This document shows, in pieces, positions 42,608-52,707 of a stretch of 64,000 nucleotides of DNA. The position numbers were made by a program, and so were the translations under genes. This DNA is from an uncultured Acidobacteriaceae bacterium (lineage in GTDB: Bacteria > Acidobacteriota > Terriglobia > Terriglobales > Acidobacteriaceae). Position 1 is the first letter of the stretch. Every line of letters starts with the position of its first letter. The notes below the pieces were generated by a model, which ran no database searches, had not been told where the DNA came from, and saw only the letters and a list, made by a program, of their open reading frames with translations. The DNA lies in assembly GCA_963838345.1 (NCBI GenBank), contig CAWIQU010000008.1, forward strand, positions 442,305 through 506,304. The letters are read 5' to 3'.

Positions 42608-43936
42608 ATGCAGGTTTCAACGTCGGTTGGTTCGGGTGTTACTTCACACGATGGCAAAAAGCATTCCGTATTTCCTGAGGGTCATCTGTTGCCGTTTGTG
42701 TTCGTGACGGTGCTGTTTTTTCTTTGGGGAATGTCGAACAATCTGACGGACATTCTGGTGCAGCAGTTCAGGAAGTCGTTCGAGCTATCGCAGTTTGGCG
42801 CGCAATTGGTGCAGACCGCGAATTTTTTTGGCTACTTCTGCATGGCGATTCCTGCAGCCCTGCTCATGCGCAGATGGGGATACAAGGCCGGAATGGTGAC
42901 CGGACTAGTGATGTTTGGGGCAGGGATGGTGCTTTTCTGGCCAGCGGCCGTAAGCGGGCAATACGGCCTGTTCTTGATGGCGCTGTTTACAGTAGGCTGC
43001 GGCGCTTCGATTCTCGAGACGGCGGCTAACCCCTTCATTGCGCAGTTTGGCGATCCAGCGACGTCGGAGCAGAGGCTGAATTTTTCGCAGTCGTTCAATC
43101 CTCCGGGGACGATTACCGGAGTGTTGATCGGTACGTACTTCATCTTTTCGGGCGTGGAGAAGAACCAGGTCGAGGTGGCCGCTATGAAGGCGGCGGGGAC
43201 CTACCAGGCTTATCTGCATACCGAGATCATGCGGGTTGTTCCGACTTATCTCACGTTCGGTGCGGTAGTGCTGCTGTGTGCTGTTGTCCTTTCACGGACG
43301 AAGTTTCCGGTGATGCAGTCGGAGCATGAGGGCGCCGGCGAGAACCATGGAAGCTTTGCGGAGCTGCTGCGGATTCCGGCGATATGGATTGCTGTGGCGG
43401 CGAACTTCTGCAACGTGGGGGCACAGATATCTTCGTGGAGCAGTTTGATCCCTTATATGAAGCAGTACACGATGGTGAGCGAACGGACAGCGGCTCATTA
43501 TCTGACCGGTGTGCTGATTGCGATGGGCATCGGGCGGTTTGTTTCGACTCCTCTGATGCGTTTCGTACGGCCGAGTTTGATGCTTGGGGCCTACGGCGTG
43601 GTGAACGCGCTGCTGATGCTGGTGACAGTGAGCAGGCCCGGAATTGTTGGTGCGTGGGCTGTGGTGGCGAGCGGGTTCTTCATCTCGATCATGTTTCCGA
43701 CCATCTTTGCGCTGGGCTTGAAGGGACTGGGGCGGAATACGAAGATCGGCGGTTCGCTGCTGGTGATGGCGATTGTTGGCGGTGCGATCTTTCCGCCGGT
43801 GCTTGGGTTGATTGCCAAGCATACGGGGAGTCTGGCGCTGGGATACCTGGTACCCACGGTTGGGTTTGTCGGGGTGGCGGTGTTCGGGTTTTATCAGGCT
43901 ACGCAGCGGTCTTTGCTCTCGGGGCCTGAATACTGA
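42608..43936 (+). CDS. fucP: L-fucose:H+ symporter (MFS, FucP family)
   Basis: LFFLWGMSNNLTDIL, LETAANP, RLNFSQSFNPPG, SIMFPTIF and MAIVGGA motifs. Confidence 0.88.
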   Translation: MQVSTSVGSGVTSHDGKKHSVFPEGHLLPFVFVTVLFFLWGMSNNLTDILVQQFRKSFELSQFGAQLVQTANFFGYFCMAIPAALLMRRWGYKAGMVTGLVMFGAGMVLFWPAAVSGQYGLFLMALFTVGCGASILETAANPFIAQFGDPATSEQRLNFSQSFNPPGTITGVLIGTYFIFSGVEKNQVEVAAMKAAGTYQAYLHTEIMRVVPTYLTFGAVVLLCAVVLSRTKFPVMQSEHEGAGENHGSFAELLRIPAIWIAVAANFCNVGAQISSWSSLIPYMKQYTMVSERTAAHYLTGVLIAMGIGRFVSTPLMRFVRPSLMLGAYGVVNALLMLVTVSRPGIVGAWAVVASGFFISIMFPTIFALGLKGLGRNTKIGGSLLVMAIVGGAIFPPVLGLIAKHTGSLALGYLVPTVGFVGVAVFGFYQATQRSLLSGPEY

Positions 43937-43953: not shown

Positions 43954-44688
43954 CTAAAAGTGACGCAGGGTCTCGGTGTGGGTTGGGGGCTTGTAGTCGG
44001 GGTCGCCGGGAATGGGGTCAAAGGTGGTGCTGCGCTCAAGGGAGCGGCTGACGATGTCGCGGGAGCCGAGGCCGACGGCGAGGGCTAGCGTCAGGACGAT
44101 GCCGCCGAACAGAATGCCAAAGGCGAGTTCGACGACGGCGCCACCGATCTGGAGGTGATCGAGCACCATGGCAGCGGTGAGGACGAGGACGAGCCACTTG
44201 ATGCCAAGGGAGAGGAAGCGCGCGTACTGGAGCTTGGCGTTGACGGCGCCGATGAGGACGGAGCGTTCGAGGAAGCGGGCGATGACGGTGCCAGCGATGA
44301 GAAGGAGGACGGCTCCGATGGAGTGGGTGAGGTAGGGGATGATGAAGGTCGAGATCTGCGCGTCGCCGGGGTAGGCGCCGTCGAAGGCGGAGATGCCGAT
44401 GAAGCAGCCGATGAGGACGCAAGCCCAGAAGACTACGCGGGCGATGAGCGCCGTGGGGCTGTTGGCGGGGGACCAGTCGGAGATGGGCGCGGTGGCGTTG
44501 CGGGCGAGGCGCTCGTCAAACTTGGCGGCGGTGAGGGTGCGGCGCAGAAGAGCGGCCAGGCCTGCTCCGATGGCGGTGAGGACGATGACGGCGAGCAGAA
44601 GGGCGACGAGGCCAGGGAGGAAGCTGGCGAGTTTGACGAGCACTCGGTGAGCGGATTGGCTAAGGGCGAGTTCGACTTGTTGCCACAT
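43954..44688 (-). CDS. TM-helix repeat membrane protein (CmpX / MscS N-terminal-like)
   Basis: FLPGLVALL...G...A.LLR..L....FDERL; LAFGILFGGIVLTLALAVGLG motif; no MscS cytoplasmic cage domain seen. Confidence 0.65.
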   Translation of the reverse strand: MWQQVELALSQSAHRVLVKLASFLPGLVALLLAVIVLTAIGAGLAALLRRTLTAAKFDERLARNATAPISDWSPANSPTALIARVVFWACVLIGCFIGISAFDGAYPGDAQISTFIIPYLTHSIGAVLLLIAGTVIARFLERSVLIGAVNAKLQYARFLSLGIKWLVLVLTAAMVLDHLQIGGAVVELAFGILFGGIVLTLALAVGLGSRDIVSRSLERSTTFDPIPGDPDYKPPTHTETLRHF

Positions 44689-44699
44689 GGTTGTTACCT

Positions 44700-44734
44700 C
44701 AGTTGTCAGTTCCCAGTTGTCAGTTCTCAGTTCC
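44700..44734. repeat. Heptamer tandem repeat (CAGTTNY)x5
   Basis: CAGTTGT CAGTTCC CAGTTGT CAGTTCT CAGTTCC, followed by degenerate NNGTTNN units. Confidence 0.8.
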
Positions 44735-44771
44735 GGTTATGAGTTGCGGGTTGTAAATCCTGAAGTGTCTT

Positions 44772-45968
44772 TCATGGGTTGAAGCGGTCTGGCCATCGCC
44801 AGCGGGATACGAGGTACGGTTTGTCGGTTTCGAAGGCGACAGCGACGTCCTGGATGTGCTTTTCGGGAGCGGTCCCGTTGCTGATGAGCGTGAGGTGCGA
44901 GGCGACCCAGGCGAGATAGAGCGGCGTGAGTGCGCCAAGAAGGTGTCCGCGATTGATGGTGCGGAGGCGGAAGGCGAGGATGAAGTCGTAGACGATGCGC
45001 GCCCAGAGATTGTCGGGCATGCGGAAGTTTTCGGGCTGCATCAGGGAGAGTTTCTTGAGGCCGAGGAGCGAGTTGGGCGGAAGGACGAGAGACCAGATCT
45101 CGTGGAGGTTGGTGTAGGCGAGACGGAAGGCGTCGAGCATTGAGGCGATGTCGGATGGCGGTTCGGCGACTGGGGTGGTTTGGGTGATGGACTGGGCGGT
45201 TTGGGTGCCGCGGGCGCGCTGCCAGAAGGCAGCTTTAGCGTCGACGTCGGCGAAGAGCGAGCCGGCGATGTGGGCCAGGAGCCCGTTGATGTCAGCTGAG
45301 ACTGGCTGAGGGAAGGTGCGGGGGCCGACCTCGACCTCGGAGATGCTGCAGTTAGCGGAGGCTGCTTCGCTAAGGGGCCAGAGGAGCCCGTCATTTTGGC
45401 CGGCGGCGGTGAAACGTTGTGCAGTGTTCGCTAGACGCTCCGCCATGCGGAGAGAGAAGCCGAGATCAATGGCGAGCGGGTAGCGGGGGCGGGTACTGAA
45501 GAGGGCGCGAGTGACGGGGTAGAGGATCGCGGAGTTGACCAGGCCTTCGTGGGGGCCGAGGTCGTAGTGAGCCAGGGTGAGGTCGCTGAGGAGTGCGGAT
45601 TTTGCGAGCGCGCGGATCGCCTCGGGATGGAGGGATTGGGCTTCGGGACCGAGGAGGACGCAGGCGGTGGCGTGGTTTTCCTGTGCGAGCTTGTAGGTGT
45701 TGAGGTAGTCGGCCGCAGTGAGCATCCAGGGGGTGGCTGAGACGGAAGTCAGGGTGTAGGAGATAAGGCGGAGGGGGCTTCCGGAGGAGGATTGCGGGGC
45801 AGCGTCTGGTGTGGCGACGAGAACGGTTTCGCCCGGGAAGGCTAGGGCGAGGTTACTGAGCGTAGCGTCGAAGGCCTCCTGCGGCAGGGGAACGAGGCTG
45901 ACGAGAAGGCCGCTCGTACCGGTCGAGGGGGCGGAGGTGAGGTCGACATTTGTTTGCGTGGAGGCCAT
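44772..45968 (-). CDS. Glucosylglycerate synthase-like glycosyltransferase homolog, apparently lacking the DxD motif
   Basis: C-terminal LWARIVYDF..A...LL.ALTPLYLAWVAS...FETDKPYLVSRW and HEGLVNSAILYPVTRALF resemble Ggs-type proteins; N-terminus degenerate. Confidence 0.5.
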   Translation of the reverse strand: MASTQTNVDLTSAPSTGTSGLLVSLVPLPQEAFDATLSNLALAFPGETVLVATPDAAPQSSSGSPLRLISYTLTSVSATPWMLTAADYLNTYKLAQENHATACVLLGPEAQSLHPEAIRALAKSALLSDLTLAHYDLGPHEGLVNSAILYPVTRALFSTRPRYPLAIDLGFSLRMAERLANTAQRFTAAGQNDGLLWPLSEAASANCSISEVEVGPRTFPQPVSADINGLLAHIAGSLFADVDAKAAFWQRARGTQTAQSITQTTPVAEPPSDIASMLDAFRLAYTNLHEIWSLVLPPNSLLGLKKLSLMQPENFRMPDNLWARIVYDFILAFRLRTINRGHLLGALTPLYLAWVASHLTLISNGTAPEKHIQDVAVAFETDKPYLVSRWRWPDRFNP

Positions 45969-46215
45969 CAGGCGATCTGGACTTTCTCTGTTCGGTTAGC
46001 GGTAGTTCAAATCTTCGTAAGTGGACGGCTCTTTTGTTTTGTGGGTGTCATGTGTTCGAGATTTTCATGCGTCGTATTCAAAGCCCATGCCGTTTTTAGC
46101 ACGCACAAAATGACTGTGATGTGCATCTTACGTATTTGAATCTGCTTAAGCAGATGCGTGTTCTTGTGTATGCGGTTGCTGGCAGGAGGAATGCAGTCGC
46201 GAAAGGCGAAGACCA

Positions 46216-48063
46216 GTGGCAAAACAAAAGAAAAAGGGCGCGAGCCCATTACATGGCTCGCTGATTGAAGATTATTGCATGATTGGGGACTGCGAGACGG
46301 CAGCGTTGGTCTCTCGGGAAGGCTCGATCGACTGGCTGTGCTGGCCGAACTTCTCTTCGGCGGCGTGTTTCGCAGCTTTGCTGGGTACACGCGACCACGG
46401 ATATTGGAAGATTTCGCCTGCCGGCAAAGTGAAGGCGGTGAGGCGACAGTACGAGGCGCATGCCTTAGTGGTGGAGACGACCTTCGAGACAAGCGACGGA
46501 GAGGTGTGCCTTGTGGACTTTATGCCGCCGCGGGGAAAGCACTCGCATGTGGTGCGGATGGTACGCGGGGTGCGCGGCAAGGTGGCGATGCAGATGGATT
46601 TAACGATCCGGTTTGACTATGGCAGGACGATTCCGTGGGTGACGAGCACCGACCACGAACTGCATGCGATAGCCGGATCGGACATGGTGGTGCTGCGGGC
46701 GGATACGCCCCTGCGTGGCGAGGGGATGTCGACGCGTAGTGAATTTACGGTGCGGAAGGGACAGACGGTGAGTTTTACCATGACGAGTTTGTCGTCGTTG
46801 GAAAAGGTCTCGCCGGCGCAGCCTGCCGAGACGGCGCTTAAGGAGACGCGGGATTTCTGGACGGCGTGGAACAGGAGGAACAAATACCGGGGCCCTTATG
46901 CCGATGCGGTGGAAAGGTCGTTGATGACTTTGAAGGCGATGACGTACCGACCTTCGGGTGGAATTGTTGCGGCGGTGACGACTTCGTTGCCGGAGAAGAT
47001 CGGCGGGTCGCGCAACTGGGATTACCGGTACTGCTGGCTGCGGGACACTGCGTTCACGCTGCTGGTGTTGATGGAGGCCGGTTACGTCGAGGAGGCTGTG
47101 GCTTGGCGAAAGTGGTTGTTGCGGGCTATCGCCGGAGCGCCGGATCAGGTGCAGACGATTTACGGCATCTGCGGTGAGCGGCAGCTCCTTGAGTGGGAGG
47201 CTGATTGGCTGCCTGGGTATGAGGGCTCGCGGCCAGTGCGCATCGGTAATGCAGCGGTGGATCAGTTTCAGCTGGATGTGTTTGGCGAAGTAGCTGCCGC
47301 GCTGCACCAGACGCCGCAGGAGGAGGAGGACATCCGGGTGTCCTCGACGGCGGTGCAGGCGGCGTTCATCGACCATCTGTGCAAGGTGTGGCAGGAGCCA
47401 GATGAAGGGATATGGGAGACCCGCGGCGGGGCGAGACACTTTACGTACTCGAAGGTAATGGCGTGGGTCGCGCTCGACCGGGCGATCAAACACCACGAGC
47501 GTTGTGATGGCGGCGGTGATGTTAGGCGGTGGCGCAAGAACCGCGACATGGTCCACAAGGAGGTCTGCGAGAAAGGCTTCAATAAAAAGCTGAACAGCTT
47601 TGTGCAGTCGTATGGGTCGAAGGAGCTGGATGCATCGTGTCTGCTCATTTCGCTTACTGGATTTCTGCCCGCAGATGATCCGCGAATTGTTGGAACGGTC
47701 GAGGCGATTGAAAAGCGGCTGCTGAAGGGTGGCTTTGTGCTGCGGTATGACACGAGGACAACAGACGACGGCCTGCCGGCTGGGGAGGGAGTGTTTCTGG
47801 CGTGCAGCTTCTGGATGGTGACGAACCTCTGGCTGATTGGACGCAAGGCGGATGCGACGGCGATGTTCGAGCGGCTGCTTGCGTTGAGGAACGATGTGGG
47901 GCTACTGTCGGAGGAGTACGATCCGGTGGCGAAGCGCATGGTGGGAAATTTTCCGCAGGCGTTTTCGCATATTGCGCTGATTCAATCTGCGTTTGCAATT
48001 TCTGGGCTGTGGCGGCCGGAGCCATCGGCCGTGACAAAGGGTCCGGCGAAAAAAGCAATCTAG
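46216..48063 (+). CDS. Glycoside hydrolase family 15 protein (trehalase/glucoamylase-like)
   Basis: IGDCETAALV...IDWLC, WDYRYCWLRD, QLDVFGE, DEGIWETRG and LLSEEYDP...GNFPQAFSH motifs. Confidence 0.92.
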   Translation: MAKQKKKGASPLHGSLIEDYCMIGDCETAALVSREGSIDWLCWPNFSSAACFAALLGTRDHGYWKISPAGKVKAVRRQYEAHALVVETTFETSDGEVCLVDFMPPRGKHSHVVRMVRGVRGKVAMQMDLTIRFDYGRTIPWVTSTDHELHAIAGSDMVVLRADTPLRGEGMSTRSEFTVRKGQTVSFTMTSLSSLEKVSPAQPAETALKETRDFWTAWNRRNKYRGPYADAVERSLMTLKAMTYRPSGGIVAAVTTSLPEKIGGSRNWDYRYCWLRDTAFTLLVLMEAGYVEEAVAWRKWLLRAIAGAPDQVQTIYGICGERQLLEWEADWLPGYEGSRPVRIGNAAVDQFQLDVFGEVAAALHQTPQEEEDIRVSSTAVQAAFIDHLCKVWQEPDEGIWETRGGARHFTYSKVMAWVALDRAIKHHERCDGGGDVRRWRKNRDMVHKEVCEKGFNKKLNSFVQSYGSKELDASCLLISLTGFLPADDPRIVGTVEAIEKRLLKGGFVLRYDTRTTDDGLPAGEGVFLACSFWMVTNLWLIGRKADATAMFERLLALRNDVGLLSEEYDPVAKRMVGNFPQAFSHIALIQSAFAISGLWRPEPSAVTKGPAKKAI

Positions 48064-48077
48064 ATATGTGGCCATTG

Positions 48078-48155
48078 CAGTGCAACAGTGAATGCAAGCA
48101 ACTGTGAATGCAACCAGCAGTGATGCGATGAACCAACAGTGATGCAACCAACAGG
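48078..48155. repeat. Degenerate 15-19-bp tandem repeat, consensus CAGTG(A)ATGCAACCAA
   Basis: Units at 48086, 48102, 48118 and 48137 plus partial units. Confidence 0.65.
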
Positions 48156-48234
48156 GCGCTTAGAGCCTCTAATCAACTATCTGCATAACTCTTCTGCTGC
48201 CTTGTTTTCCTGAACGAGTTTTTCTGATCGGCTG

Positions 48235-50940
48235 ATGACAATGCTACGGATTCCATGCTCGACCTACAGGCTGCAACTCCATAAAGACTTTACATTCGAT
48301 AATGCGGCGGGGATCGCGGGCTATCTGCGTGAGCTTGGGATTTCGCATGTCTACAGCTCTCCTTATCTGCAGGCTGCACCGGGAAGCCTGCATGGATACG
48401 ATGTTGTCGATCACCAAGGAGTAAATAAAGAACTGGGCGGCGCCGAGGCGCACGATCGCTTCTGCGCGAAGCTGGGCGAGGCGGATCTGGGGCAGGTTCT
48501 GGACATTGTGCCGAACCATATGTCGCTCGGCAAGGAGAACAAGTACTGGTGGGACGTGCTCGAGAATGGAACGTCGAGCCGGTATGCTTCGTTCTTCGAT
48601 ATCGACTGGCAGCCGCAGGAGGAGCGCCTGCGGGACAAGGTACTGGTCCCAATACTCGGCGATCAGTATGGGCGGGTGTTGCAGACGGGTGGCATCAAGG
48701 TGGTGCGGCGAGGAATCAAGTTTCAGGTGGAGTGCGCGGGACAGACTCTTCCCGTGTCGCCACCGTCGCTTCCGGCGATTCTTGCGCGGGCCGCGGAGTA
48801 TGCGAAGTCGGATACGCTGAGTTTTCTTGCGGCTTCGTTCGGCCGATTGCCTGCGCCTGAGTATGTTGACCGCGGGACGATTCTGGCACGGCATCGCGAT
48901 AAGGTTGTGCTGTTCACGCTGCTGGAGCGGCTCTGCGCGGAGGAGCCGGAAATCTTTGACGGGATGGACCACTCAGTATCTGACTTGAATGCGAATCTGG
49001 ATGCGTTGGATGATTTTCTGAACCAGCAAAATTATCGGCTGGCGTACTGGAAGACGGCGGACCAGCAGTTGAGTTACCGGCGGTTTTTCGATGTGAATAC
49101 GCTGATCGGCCTGCGTGTGGAGCGGGAGTATGTGTTCGAAGAGACACATGCATTGGTTCTGGACTGGCTGAGGCGCGGAGTTATAGACGGGGTGCGGGTG
49201 GATCATCCGGACGGGCTGCGCGATCCGCTGGAGTATCTGAAGCGTTTGCGAGAGAATGCGCCAGATGCTTATATCGTCGGCGAAAAGATCCTGGAGCCGG
49301 GCGAGTTTTTGCGTGAGAGCTGGCCGATCCAAGGGACGACCGGGTATGACTTCCTCAATGTTGCAGCGGGCGTGCTGGTCGCTCCTGAGGGAATGGCGGA
49401 GTTGACGTCGATCTATGGCGATTTTACGGACCAGATCACGGACTTCCATTCCATCGCGCACGAGAAAAAAATCAGTGTGACGCAGGAGGGGTTAGGAAGT
49501 GACGTCAATCGGCTGACGTCGTTGTTTGTGGAGATATGTGAGGCGAATCGTGACCGGCGGGACTATACGCAGACTGAGGTGAGGCGGGCGATTCGTGAGG
49601 TGGCGGCGTGCTTTGCGATCTATCGGACGTATGTGGTACCGGAGCGGGAGGAGATTACCGACGAGGACCGAGAACACATTGCCCAGGCGGCGGAGTGCGC
49701 GAAGCAACATCGGCAAGACATCGATGGCGGGCTCTTCGACTTTCTTCGCGATGTGCTGACGATGGAAGTGAAAGGAAAGCAGGAGAGTGAGTTTGTGCTG
49801 CGGTTCCAGCAGTTCACCGGGCCGGTGATGGCGAAGGGTGTGGAAGACACGGCCTTTTACTGCTATGACCGGCTGACCGGGATGAACGAGGTGGGGAGCG
49901 ATCCGGGGCGCAACGGTTTGAGCGTCGCTGAGTTTCATGCGTACTGCCAGAAGATGCAGGCGACGCATCCTTCGACGATGACGACGCTGTCGACACACGA
50001 TACGAAGCGCAGTGACGATGTGAGGGCGCGGCTGGCGGTGTTGTCGGAGATCCCGGGGAAATTTAATGCAGCGGTGCAGCGGTGGTCGCGGATGAATAGC
50101 GCGTTTCGTACAGGTAGGCGTGGGACACCTGCGATGCCGGACCGGAACACGGAGTATCTGTACTACCAGACGCTGATTGGCGCGTGGCCGCTGCCGATAG
50201 ACCGGGCGCAGGCTTATATGTTGAAGGCGGTGCGCGAGGCGAAGCAGCAGACGAGCTGGGTGGCGAACAACAAGGAGTTTGAAGATGCGCTGCGCATGTT
50301 TATTGAGTTGACGTTGAACTATGCGCCGTTCTTGCGGGAGCTGCAACAGTTTGTGACGCGGGTGCAGGACGCGGGACGGGTGAACTCGCTGACGCAGACG
50401 CTGCTGAAGTATACGGCTCCCGGTGTGCCGGATCTTTATCAGGGAGGCGAGTTGTGGGACCTGAGCCTTGTCGATCCGGATAATCGGCGTCCGGTTGATT
50501 ATGCGCTGCGGAAGCGTTTGTTGTGTGAGCTGAAGCGGATGAAAGGGGAGGATGTCGTGGCGCAGGTGATGTTGCGGGCGGATGAAGGATTGCCGAAGAT
50601 GTGGACGATCCATAAGGCGCTCGAACTGCGGCGGGAGCGGCCGGAGTGTTTTGGCGCAGAGGCGGAATATACGCCGCTCGAGGTGGATGGGGATAAGCAC
50701 GACCATGTGATTGCGTATCTGCGGGGCGAGGACGTTGTGACGGTGGTGCCGCGACTGACGCTGAAGTTGGGTGGTGCGTGGAAGGACACGATTGTGGTGC
50801 TTCCTAAGGGCAAGTGGCGAAATCGTCTGACGGGGGGAAGTGTTGAGGGTGGTGTGATTACGATGAGATTGTTGATGAAGGATTTTCCGGTAGTGCTTCT
50901 GGTGCGCGAGGGTACGGGGGCTGGCGAGAGCGATGCATGA
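48235..50940 (+). CDS. treY: Malto-oligosyltrehalose synthase (GH13)
   Basis: STYRLQL, SHVYSSP, HGYDVVDH, DIVPNHM, YRRFFDVN, RVDHPDGLRDP, VGEKILEPGE, STHDTKRS and LVDPDNRRPVDY motifs. Confidence 0.95.
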   Translation: MTMLRIPCSTYRLQLHKDFTFDNAAGIAGYLRELGISHVYSSPYLQAAPGSLHGYDVVDHQGVNKELGGAEAHDRFCAKLGEADLGQVLDIVPNHMSLGKENKYWWDVLENGTSSRYASFFDIDWQPQEERLRDKVLVPILGDQYGRVLQTGGIKVVRRGIKFQVECAGQTLPVSPPSLPAILARAAEYAKSDTLSFLAASFGRLPAPEYVDRGTILARHRDKVVLFTLLERLCAEEPEIFDGMDHSVSDLNANLDALDDFLNQQNYRLAYWKTADQQLSYRRFFDVNTLIGLRVEREYVFEETHALVLDWLRRGVIDGVRVDHPDGLRDPLEYLKRLRENAPDAYIVGEKILEPGEFLRESWPIQGTTGYDFLNVAAGVLVAPEGMAELTSIYGDFTDQITDFHSIAHEKKISVTQEGLGSDVNRLTSLFVEICEANRDRRDYTQTEVRRAIREVAACFAIYRTYVVPEREEITDEDREHIAQAAECAKQHRQDIDGGLFDFLRDVLTMEVKGKQESEFVLRFQQFTGPVMAKGVEDTAFYCYDRLTGMNEVGSDPGRNGLSVAEFHAYCQKMQATHPSTMTTLSTHDTKRSDDVRARLAVLSEIPGKFNAAVQRWSRMNSAFRTGRRGTPAMPDRNTEYLYYQTLIGAWPLPIDRAQAYMLKAVREAKQQTSWVANNKEFEDALRMFIELTLNYAPFLRELQQFVTRVQDAGRVNSLTQTLLKYTAPGVPDLYQGGELWDLSLVDPDNRRPVDYALRKRLLCELKRMKGEDVVAQVMLRADEGLPKMWTIHKALELRRERPECFGAEAEYTPLEVDGDKHDHVIAYLRGEDVVTVVPRLTLKLGGAWKDTIVVLPKGKWRNRLTGGSVEGGVITMRLLMKDFPVVLLVREGTGAGESDA

Positions 50941-52707
50941 GTTTACGGTTTGGGCGCCGAATGCACGTAAGGTTGCGGTGAAGATTGGTGAGGCGACGTA
51001 TCCGATGCGCGGGCCCAGCGATCGCGGGTGGTGGAGTGTTTCGGTGGAGCATGCCGGGCCGGGGACTGACTATAAATTTTTGCTGGACGGGGATGCAAGG
51101 ACGGGGATGGGCAGGCATGGCCCGATCCTCGTTCGCTATGGCAGCCGCATGGAGTGCACGGACCGTCGCGGATTTACGACCAGGCGGCATTTACGTGGAG
51201 CGATCAGGGTTGGGATGCTCCGCCGCTTGCGCGAGCGGTGATCTATGAGTTGCATATTGGGACGTTTACGCCGCGGGGGACGTTTGATTCGGCGATTGAG
51301 CGGCTGGACTATCTGGTTGAGCTTGGGATTACACATGTCGAGTTGATGCCGGTGGCTGCGTTTCCTGGCGGGTATGGGTGGGGGTATGACGGGGCTTCGT
51401 TGTTTGCCGTGACGGAGCAGTATGGCGGGCCGGACGGATTGAAGCGACTGGTGGGCGCTTGTCATGCGCGTGGGCTCGCAGTGTTGCTGGATGTGGTCTA
51501 CAACCACTTCGGGCCAGTGGGGAACTACAGCGGGAAGTTTGGGCCTTACATCACGGACAGGCATCGCACGCCGTGGGGTGGGGCGGTGAACTTTGAGGAT
51601 TGGGGAAGCGATGAGGTGCGGCGGTTCTTCTGCGACAACGCGTTGATGTGGATGCGGGACTACCATATCGACGGGCTGCGGCTGGATGCGGTGCATGAGT
51701 TTGTCGACCGGTCGGCGGTCCATCTCATGGAGCAGTTAGCGGATGAGGTGAGGGAGTTGTCCGCGGGGCTGAAGCGTCGGCTGGTCCTGATTGCCGAGAG
51801 CGACTTGAACGATCCTCGAGTGGTAACACCCCGCAAGGCCGGTGGCTATGGAATGGATGCGCAGTGGAGTGACGATTTTCATCATGCGCTGTTTGCTGTT
51901 CTCCATAGCGGTGGCGGAGAGAAGGGGTACTATGTCGATTTCGGGTCGGTGGCGAAGCTGGCCAAGGCGCTGGCGAAGACGTTTGTGCAGGATGGGACTT
52001 ACTCGAAGTACCGCGGACGCAACCATGGAAGGCCGGTCGATGATCTTTCATCGCATCAGTTTCTCGGGTATATCCAGACTCACGATCAGGTGGGAAACCG
52101 AGCGATTGGAGACCGTGTGGAGCAGATCGTCGGGATGGACCGGGCGAAGGTTGCGGCGGGGATAGTGCTGACGGCGCCGTTCGTTCCGATGCTTTTTCAA
52201 GGGGAGGAGTTCGCGGCTTCGGCGCCGTTTCAGTACTTCGCTGATCATGAGGATCCGGAGATGGCGAGGGCGGTGAAGATGGGCCGACGCGGCGAGTTCG
52301 CTGCGTTTGGGTGGAGGCCGGAGGATATCCCCGATCCGGAGAACGTGGAGACGTTTCAGCGATCGAAGCTGAAGTGGGACGAGGTGCATGAGGGGCGACA
52401 TGAGGAGATGCTGGAGTGGTATCGCAGACTGATCGCGCTTCGGCGTGGCTCGCCTTCGTTGAACGATGGGGATCCGGGACAGACGAAGGTGTCGTTTGAT
52501 GAGGACAAGAAATGGCTTGTGATGGAGCGTGGAGCGGTGACGGTGATGTCCAATCTCGGGATGGAGCCGGTGGAGTTGGACAATCCCCAGCGGCTTGCAC
52601 TGGCGCTCGCGTCGCGCGCAGATGTTGCGGTGATGGAGGGTAGGATCGTGCTGCCGCCGAACACGCTGGCTGTTCTTTCGGGTGAGAAGAGCCAGCAGAG
52701 TGTGTAG
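50933..52707 (+). pseudogene. treZ: Malto-oligosyltrehalose trehalohydrolase, frameshifted by a 14-bp insertion at 51085-51098
   Basis: N-part FTVWAP...DYKFLLDGD; C-part WPDPRSLWQPHGVHG, YELHIGTF, WGYDG, DVVYNH, RLDAVH, IAESD and HDQVGNR. Deleting GGACGGGGATGCAA restores LLDGDGQAWPDPRS (587 codons). Confidence 0.88.

Follow-up and report, generated by a model that had tools for sequence, protein, structure and literature searches.

A widespread gene pair of Acidobacteriaceae joins a probably disabled Ggs-type glycosyltransferase to an MscS-like membrane protein and probably couples the trehalose pool to membrane or osmotic state

Trehalose is a main stress protectant of soil bacteria, and to our knowledge the tie between the trehalose pool and the membrane or osmotic state of the cell is poorly understood. 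For glucosylglycerate, the synthase Ggs of Persephonella marina was reportedly characterised by Fernandes et al. (2007, J Bacteriol 189:4014). In this work we analysed a stretch of 64,000 nucleotides from an uncultured Acidobacteriaceae bacterium (GenBank assembly GCA_963838345.1, contig CAWIQU010000008.1, positions 442,305 to 506,304 of the forward strand), hereafter the window, in which a gene for a Ggs-derived glycosyltransferase (GT) protein of the GT-A type, here named ggsL (product GgsL or P0001), is followed by an msc-like gene for a membrane protein (P0002), the two lying next to genes of trehalose metabolism (Table 1). The organism is probably Edaphobacter-like, to judge from the source names attached to near-identical proteins and loci. 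We found that this pair of a disabled GT and an MscS-like protein is widespread, and it probably links the membrane or osmotic state to the trehalose pool.

The solved enzymes with which P0001 can be compared residue by residue are GpgS and the mannosylglycerate synthase MgS. In GpgS, the donor-sugar face has a single strictly conserved network, formed by Lys114, Asp134 and Glu232, with K76, D100 and D192 as their MgS equivalents; the metal is held by Asp136 and His258 (D102 and H217 in MgS), and Glu232, like D192 of MgS, is the acid that binds O4 and O6 of the donor sugar (PMC2581804). With regard to the membrane partner, CmpX of Pseudomonas aeruginosa has been described as an MscS homologue (PMC10965496).

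As a single sequence, P0001 had no match in Pfam, NCBIfam or the sequences of the PDB, and its placement came only from a profile of the family and a search by fold; the Protein Atlas returned only generic names. The family of P0001 is large, with over 4,000 clusters at the 90% identity level and 920 at the 50% level, and it was found in 103 of 401 Acidobacteriota genomes. A predicted model of P0001, obtained with AlphaFold2 from a 95-sequence alignment (pLDDT 89.8), displays a GT-A fold and, C-terminal to it, a helical domain; its top Foldseek matches were chains of the Rhodothermus mannosylglycerate synthase, over about 400 columns and with TM-scores of 0.63-0.69, followed by GpgS, MPGS and GT2 enzymes. 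At the sequence level, the family profile reaches mycobacterial GpgS (E 5e-4), and full-length homology, as detected by phmmer and hidden Markov model searches and by a common tree, places P0001 together with members encoded in gpgS-gpgP-ggs operons. The best explanation of these likenesses appears to be descent of P0001 from a GT-A enzyme of the single-step glucosylglycerate synthase kind.

Two samples were used for the comparative analyses. The phylum sample consisted of the 401 Acidobacteriota genomes, from which 40 diverse GT loci were taken, 31 with an intact enzyme and 9 derived; an unpublished genome in which the GT is present with no strong msc match (G049) was counted only in the 401-genome tallies. 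The second sample comprised 80 Acidobacteriaceae loci, which are the best 80 loci of a scan for the C-terminal tail pattern of GgsL in a one-genome-per-species collection; in that collection, the tail pattern by itself was enough to confirm relatives in at least 571 stretches.

In the family profile, D134-S-D136 of GpgS aligns on G107-P108-E109 of P0001, within ACVLLGPEAQSL, and we therefore take ACVLLGPEAQSL to be the DxD site. The first Asp of this site is gone in P0001 and the second, which is a metal ligand in GpgS, is replaced by Glu, so that no DxD is left, whereas intact family members read VVD[AS]DL. At six marker positions of P0001 (D55, T84, G107, E109, D168 and F219), each of the 31 intact relatives reads D-K-D-D-D/E-H, against D-T-G-E-D-[L/I/F] in every one of the 80 Acidobacteriaceae orthologues. 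The Lys of the GKG loop is absent (L83-T84-A85 in P0001, against G-K-G in 31/31 intact relatives), as is the His metal ligand (F219, with L, I or F across the clade, against K-I-H-D in 31/31), and the N-terminal nucleotide motifs P-x-x-N..T (after strand 1) and D-G-G-S-x-D-G-T have been replaced by SLVPLPQEA and ATPDAAPQSSS, with only D55 kept. The 31 intact loci share the signatures G-I-P-x-[FY]-N-x-x-T, D-G-G-S-x-D-G-T, G-K-G, V-V-D-[AS]-D-L, P-I-G-G-[DE]-F and L-G-x-K-I-H-D, and the Acidobacteriaceae clade is altered at 44 of the approximately 60 positions whose conservation among intact members reaches 90% or more. Of the five GpgS residues mentioned above, P0001 retains equivalents of only Asp136 (Glu109) and Glu232 (Asp168), the latter, i.e., the donor-sugar acid, being conserved in all 80 clade members; these pocket residues were mapped by sequence only. 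The best explanation would be that P0001 no longer binds nucleoside diphosphate (NDP)-sugar and metal in the ancestral manner, and we consider it very likely that the ancestral NDP-sugar chemistry has been lost.

The replaced residues bear directly on the possibility that GgsL is an ordinary glucosylglycerate synthase, still using NDP-glucose, with the neighbouring membrane protein serving as a release valve for glucosylglycerate. An intact GT-A fold and an acid (E109) at the metal-ligand position would agree with such a role, as would the JGI product name 'glucosylglycerate synthase', which many near-identical proteins carry. However, the name is given to some but not all of the proteins that are 85-89% identical to P0001, and because of this inconsistency the JGI names look like borderline automatic calls; on GgsL proteins the name is probably wrong. 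Furthermore, none of the 31 intact relatives departs from the Lys, first Asp, His and nucleotide motifs that GgsL has replaced, the constraint on the nucleotide half is relaxed, and the genomic context has changed from gpgS-gpgP to trehalose genes (see below for both), all of which leaves this alternative very improbable.

The ratio of nonsynonymous to synonymous substitution rates (dN/dS; Nei-Gojobori method, 81 Acidobacteriaceae sequences, pairs with dS <1) was 0.27 for the whole of P0001, 0.30 for its N-terminal half and 0.19 for its C-terminal domain. A reading of ggsL as a decaying pseudogene was ruled out by these values and by the 80 intact orthologues. In derived GgsL the constraint has left the catalytic half and now falls on the C-terminal domain: with conservation expressed relative to the mean of each set, the nucleotide half (residues 20-110) scores 1.11-1.14 in the intact set and 0.67-0.80 in the derived set, the acceptor/sugar loops (111-172) score 1.27 and 1.09, respectively, and the C-terminal part (301-398) scores 0.87 and 1.35. 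In addition, the terminal tail RWRWPDRFNP is found in the derived clade only, as intact members stop shortly past K-P-Y-L-x-x-W. A first-pass annotation of the window had described ggsL as a GT gene with a Ggs-like C-terminus and an altered DxD site, whose product would be catalytically dead, and had raised the question of purifying selection on this loss. Both sequence features were borne out, the C-terminus belonging to a full fold of the MgS/GpgS type with homology across the family; the inactivity of GgsL in the ancestral reaction is now well supported by the replaced GKG Lys, first Asp, His and nucleotide motifs, and the dN/dS of the gene speaks for selection and against decay.

The same distribution of lost and kept residues is what a re-tooled enzyme would explain, namely one in which the nucleotide and metal residues were lost while the sugar-side acids stayed. 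In this main rival, GgsL would catalyze a transfer or a related reaction from a donor needing neither the nucleotide pocket nor the metal, candidate donors being maltose-1-phosphate (from the neighbouring TreS-Mak), glucose-1-phosphate, trehalose and maltose, with P0002 acting as an exporter or a tether for the product or the enzyme. The losses are exactly those of the nucleotide, diphosphate and metal binders, with D168, E109, D129, Y135, Y150, R154 and R162 retained; the residues found in place of the lost ones are in turn highly conserved (G107 0.99, L143 0.98, N145 0.98 and R217 1.00), region 111-172 is still constrained, and the TreS and Mak-like fusions presented below are typical of consecutive enzymes. 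Conversely, two residues are gone from the Lys-Asp-Glu network, described as the one feature of the donor face that retaining GT-A enzymes conserve strictly (PMC2581804). The strongest constraint, moreover, lies in the C-terminal domain and tail and not in the cleft. We know of no GT-A enzyme with such non-nucleotide donors, which likewise counts against this rival, and we regard it as a tentative possibility.

An msc-like gene lies directly after the GT gene in 80/80 Acidobacteriaceae loci. In the 401 Acidobacteriota genomes, 53 strong matches to the P0002 subfamily were identified, and 51 of them are located at most 400 bp downstream of a family GT on the same strand; of the remaining two, one is in the same operon at a distance of 3.5 kb and one is on a short contig, and no genome among the 401 carries the membrane gene without the GT. 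Weaker matches to P0002 (100-160 bits) corresponded to other MscS-type paralogues, most of them longer. The open reading frames (ORFs) of the GT and msc genes overlap by 4 bp (stop/start) in three intact loci, and the two proteins show correlated pairwise identities (r 0.71). This pairing is far beyond chance, and GgsL and the membrane protein very probably constitute a functional unit. In the window the spacer between ggsL and the msc gene holds no terminator-like site, and for this reason the two genes are probably cotranscribed. A full-text literature search retrieved no paper on such a GT-membrane protein pair.

P0002 displays about five hydrophobic helices, the last three of which appear to resemble the transmembrane helices TM1-TM3 of MscS. 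The NCBIfam model 'msc' (NF033912) matched P0002 at 1.7e-13 and 50.5 bits (cut-off 100) through the C-terminal half of the model only, and Pfam PF05552 matched weakly, at 18.6 bits (cut-off 22); since both scores are under their cut-offs, P0002 is assigned to a related yet distinct subfamily. A profile of 34 orthologues compared with the PDB aligned with residues 23-112 (TM1-TM3) of E. coli MscS (E 0.003-0.06), and Foldseek of the predicted P0002 model yielded a local match to 6vyk (92 columns, root-mean-square deviation 1.7 A, E above 1) and no significant global match. P0002 lacks a cytoplasmic cage, with PF00924 (MS_channel) unmatched even at E 10 and the chain stopping about 30 residues past the last helix. 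P0002 thus appears to resemble the membrane part of MscS (TM1-TM3) without its cytoplasmic cage. The segment matching TM1-TM3 is the most conserved part of the protein, dN/dS is 0.27 for the whole protein and 0.13 for residues 121-215, and the extreme C-terminus (..R-H-[FLIV]) is invariant in the orthologue alignment.

The missing cage and the weak MscS similarity would also suit a protein that acts as a membrane tether only, anchoring GgsL (and TreS), with GgsL as a scaffold that has no ligand-dependent role, and the conserved terminal tails of both proteins might then be docking motifs. Nevertheless, the strongest constraint on P0002 falls on the MscS TM1-TM3-like helices, including a Gly/Ala-rich segment that resembles a pore helix (residues 121-215). 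A plain anchor would not need such a constrained pore-helix-like segment and is for that reason unlikely; we consider it quite improbable that tethering is the whole function of P0002.

The genomic context of intact and derived members allowed the history of the pair to be traced. Intact enzymes adjoin two genes, one for a Methanococcoides-type GpgS (NF040724, 1e-105) and one for an HAD phosphatase of the MPGP family (TIGR01486, 9e-80), and an msc-like gene follows 12 of the 31. Since intact enzymes also carry the msc gene, the pairing predates the loss of catalytic residues. In the maximum-likelihood tree, the TreS-linked members lie on one side of a branch with a support of 93, and the Acidobacteriaceae clade terminates a succession of long branches with good support, along which the His and the Lys were lost first, followed by the DxD and the nucleotide motifs. 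A separate observation concerns an intact Ggs-type enzyme in genome G006 (L101:4368-6236, minus strand), which carries a C-terminal fusion to a TrkA_N (RCK) domain (Pfam 7e-20) and whose open frame has an equal length in G096. TrkA_N (RCK) is a regulatory domain of K+ channels and transporters, and this fusion therefore represents a further tie of the enzyme family to osmoregulation.

The derived members are associated with trehalose genes. In 48 of the 80 Acidobacteriaceae loci, treS or treS-mak lies directly upstream of ggsL; TreS, TreY, TreZ or GH15 is encoded in the flanks of 74, the other six ending at contig ends, and TreS is adjacent in 9/9 of the other derived loci. Furthermore, TreS and GgsL are fused in a single ORF in L122:4998-8045 (minus strand) and in the database protein P0151 (1015 and 1019 aa), with a complete TreS (TIGR02456, 893 bits), and in P0231 (833 aa) a weak Mak-like APH match (E 0.0044) precedes the GT domain. 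Two other apparent fusions, in L084 and L121, were discarded as over-extension of ORFs in high-GC DNA. The layout of the window, where the pair diverges from GH15-treY-treZ, is a minority variant, and the TreS-Mak of this genome is located on another contig. Neither gpgS nor an MPGP-type phosphatase gene was found in the genome, at 95% completeness, and hence glucosylglycerate is probably not made by the organism.

These results refine what the first-pass annotation had proposed for the neighbourhood of ggsL. Its gene order was read correctly: the CmpX/MscS-N-like gene is co-oriented with ggsL at the distance given in Table 1, its product bearing the profile match to MscS 23-112, and the GH15-treY-treZ genes are divergent from the pair (46216..52707, plus strand). 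The functional pairing suggested there is now strongly supported by the 80/80 loci and the 51 of 53 orthologues. The description of the region as an osmolyte block holds for trehalose and probably not for glucosylglycerate; the block is a trehalose block.

Integrating these findings, we propose that the pair originated in gpgS-gpgP-ggs-msc operons in which the enzyme was intact. In one lineage it relocated beside treS-mak, at times becoming fused, or, in the window, beside GH15-treY-treZ, and this relocated lineage lost the catalytic residues and gained the conserved C-terminal tail. Purifying selection would since have maintained GgsL in the role of cytoplasmic partner to the probably cotranscribed P0002. 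In the most likely mode of action, P0002 would sense or relieve membrane tension, and GgsL, using what is left of its sugar/acceptor pocket together with the constrained C-terminal domain, would couple tension to the trehalose pool, whether it modulates the channel-like protein or controls the TreS-Mak/TreYZ enzymes. The fold, the motif loss, the selection, the obligate synteny, the fusions and the succession of events in the tree are results of the analysis; a physical contact, a ligand and a direction of control are what we infer, and GgsL might serve as the solute sensor or gating subunit that the first-pass annotation had envisaged. A role of the pair in trehalose or osmolyte homeostasis seems rather probable; that GgsL is specifically a non-catalytic partner of P0002, linking membrane or osmotic state to the trehalose pool, has in our estimation an even chance of being correct. 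A more specific version, in which the cage-less MscS-derived protein would have the dead synthase as its cytoplasmic module and the two would transduce tension into metabolism, switching trehalose turnover (TreS-Mak, TreYZ or trehalase) with the osmotic state as a mechanosensitive regulator and not a release valve, is unlikely; if true, the transducer would be the first described pseudoenzyme partner of an MscS-type protein.

Several observations weigh against GgsL as a non-catalytic partner of a channel-like protein. In the 401-genome sample the msc neighbour is present for 51 of the 105 GT genes and absent for 54, and it is synteny alone that suggests contact between P0001 and P0002. The similarity of P0002 to MscS is weak, as the profile and Foldseek E values indicate, and its channel activity is putative. 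On the GT side, D55, D129, E109 (at the metal-ligand position) and D168 (at the sugar O4/O6 position) are kept, and the above-average conservation of region 111-172 in derived members would agree no less with a changed catalysis than with ligand binding. There are GT-A enzymes that need no metal. Finally, the presumed link to the Persephonella enzyme draws on JGI names and operon layout.

With these points taken into account, the module history leads from an active solute synthase with a membrane partner to a disabled synthase with the same partner beside trehalose genes. GgsL would provide a tractable case of a pseudoenzyme derived from a glycosyltransferase, and the pair suggests what the cage-less, CmpX-like relatives of MscS, which are poorly understood, might do.

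Table 1. Features of the ggsL-msc locus and the adjacent trehalose genes (window coordinates)
Feature	Coordinates	Strand	Remarks
ggsL (P0001), Ggs-derived GT-A protein, 398 aa	44772..45968	-	intact ORF
msc-like gene (P0002), membrane protein, 244 aa	43954..44688	-	83 bp downstream of ggsL
ggsL-msc spacer, 83 bp	44689..44771	-	no terminator-like site found
Divergent intergenic region, ggsL / GH15	45969..46215	.	alignment of 14 loci
GH15 trehalase-like glycoside hydrolase	46216..48063	+	Pfam Glyco_hydro_15 1.8e-84, TREH_N
treY, malto-oligosyltrehalose synthase	48235..50940	+	TIGR02401, 926.7 bits, above cut-off
treZ, malto-oligosyltrehalose trehalohydrolase	50912..52707, main ORF 51154..52707	+	TIGR02402, 652.9 bits, residues 69-544 only

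With regard to the remaining features of the locus, the GH15 product also matched NCBIfam TreH1 (3e-114), under the cut-off. The treZ gene is frameshifted in the assembly, since full-length orthologues aligned by tblastn fall in two frames that meet near 51100, with the first approximately 60 codons out of frame with the main ORF; the split may represent either a genuine inactivation or an assembly error. Upstream of GH15, the 14-locus alignment revealed a conserved block at 46123-46182 (34-93 nt before the gene), which reads CCAGCAACC ... GCATCT ... AGATGC; the GCATCT/AGATGC inverted pair has a spacing of about 25-35 nt, and a perfect 16-nt palindrome is located inside the block at 46140-46155. 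This block is a candidate operator or leader structure of the GH15-treYZ operon. The 5' leader preceding the ATG of ggsL is likewise conserved in this alignment, and a sigma-70 promoter scan found no promoter. Within the spacer between ggsL and the msc gene, a 14-nt unit (CAGTTGTCAGTTCC on the plus strand) is repeated 2.4 times (44700-44732, within 44698-44733).

Some observations were made on the surroundings of the pair. A gene for an MFS transporter (window 42608-43936, plus strand) is convergent with the msc gene, and it recurs after the pair, with 76-95% identity, in approximately half of the closer Acidobacteriaceae loci. The plus strand of window 32000-56000 displays an unusually strong GC skew, of +0.23 to +0.36, regardless of gene orientation, and ggsL, msc and other minus-strand genes of this region make heavy use of C-ending codons; at 8-24 kb of the window the skew drops to about zero or lower.

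Compared with the known systems, P0001 shares with the Ggs of Persephonella marina (EC 2.4.1.268) its family, by JGI product names, and its size of about 400 aa, and the gpgS-gpgP-ggs layout of the intact relatives is presumably that of Persephonella marina as well; it differs in being located beside trehalose genes, not gpgS/gpgP, and in lacking the residues kept by intact members. MgS of Rhodothermus marinus (GT78; PDB 2BO4, 2BO7 and 2Y4J-M) is the best structural match over the whole length, with GT-A and helical C-terminal domains, but the identity is 13-14%, and, mapped through GpgS, P0001 is without equivalents of D100, K76 and H217, with E109 in the place of D102 and D168 in that of D192. 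GpgS (GT81; Rv1208 of M. tuberculosis, PDB 4DEC and 4Y6N; M. hassiacum, 7PDO) represents the only solved proteins reached by the sequence profile and has the same GT-A core and order of motifs, without the long conserved C-terminal domain and tail of P0001. With respect to TreS-Mak (Pep2) of the GlgE pathway, GgsL takes the slot after treS-mak in the 48 loci mentioned above and replaces or follows Mak in L122, P0151 and P0231, and unlike Mak it has no kinase fold. Among the small MscS relatives that have been studied, CmpX of Pseudomonas comes nearest. TM1-TM3 of E. coli MscS align weakly with residues ~113-205 of P0002, which differs from MscS by the absence of the beta or alpha-beta cage, by two extra N-terminal helices and by its obligate linkage to a gene of the Ggs family.

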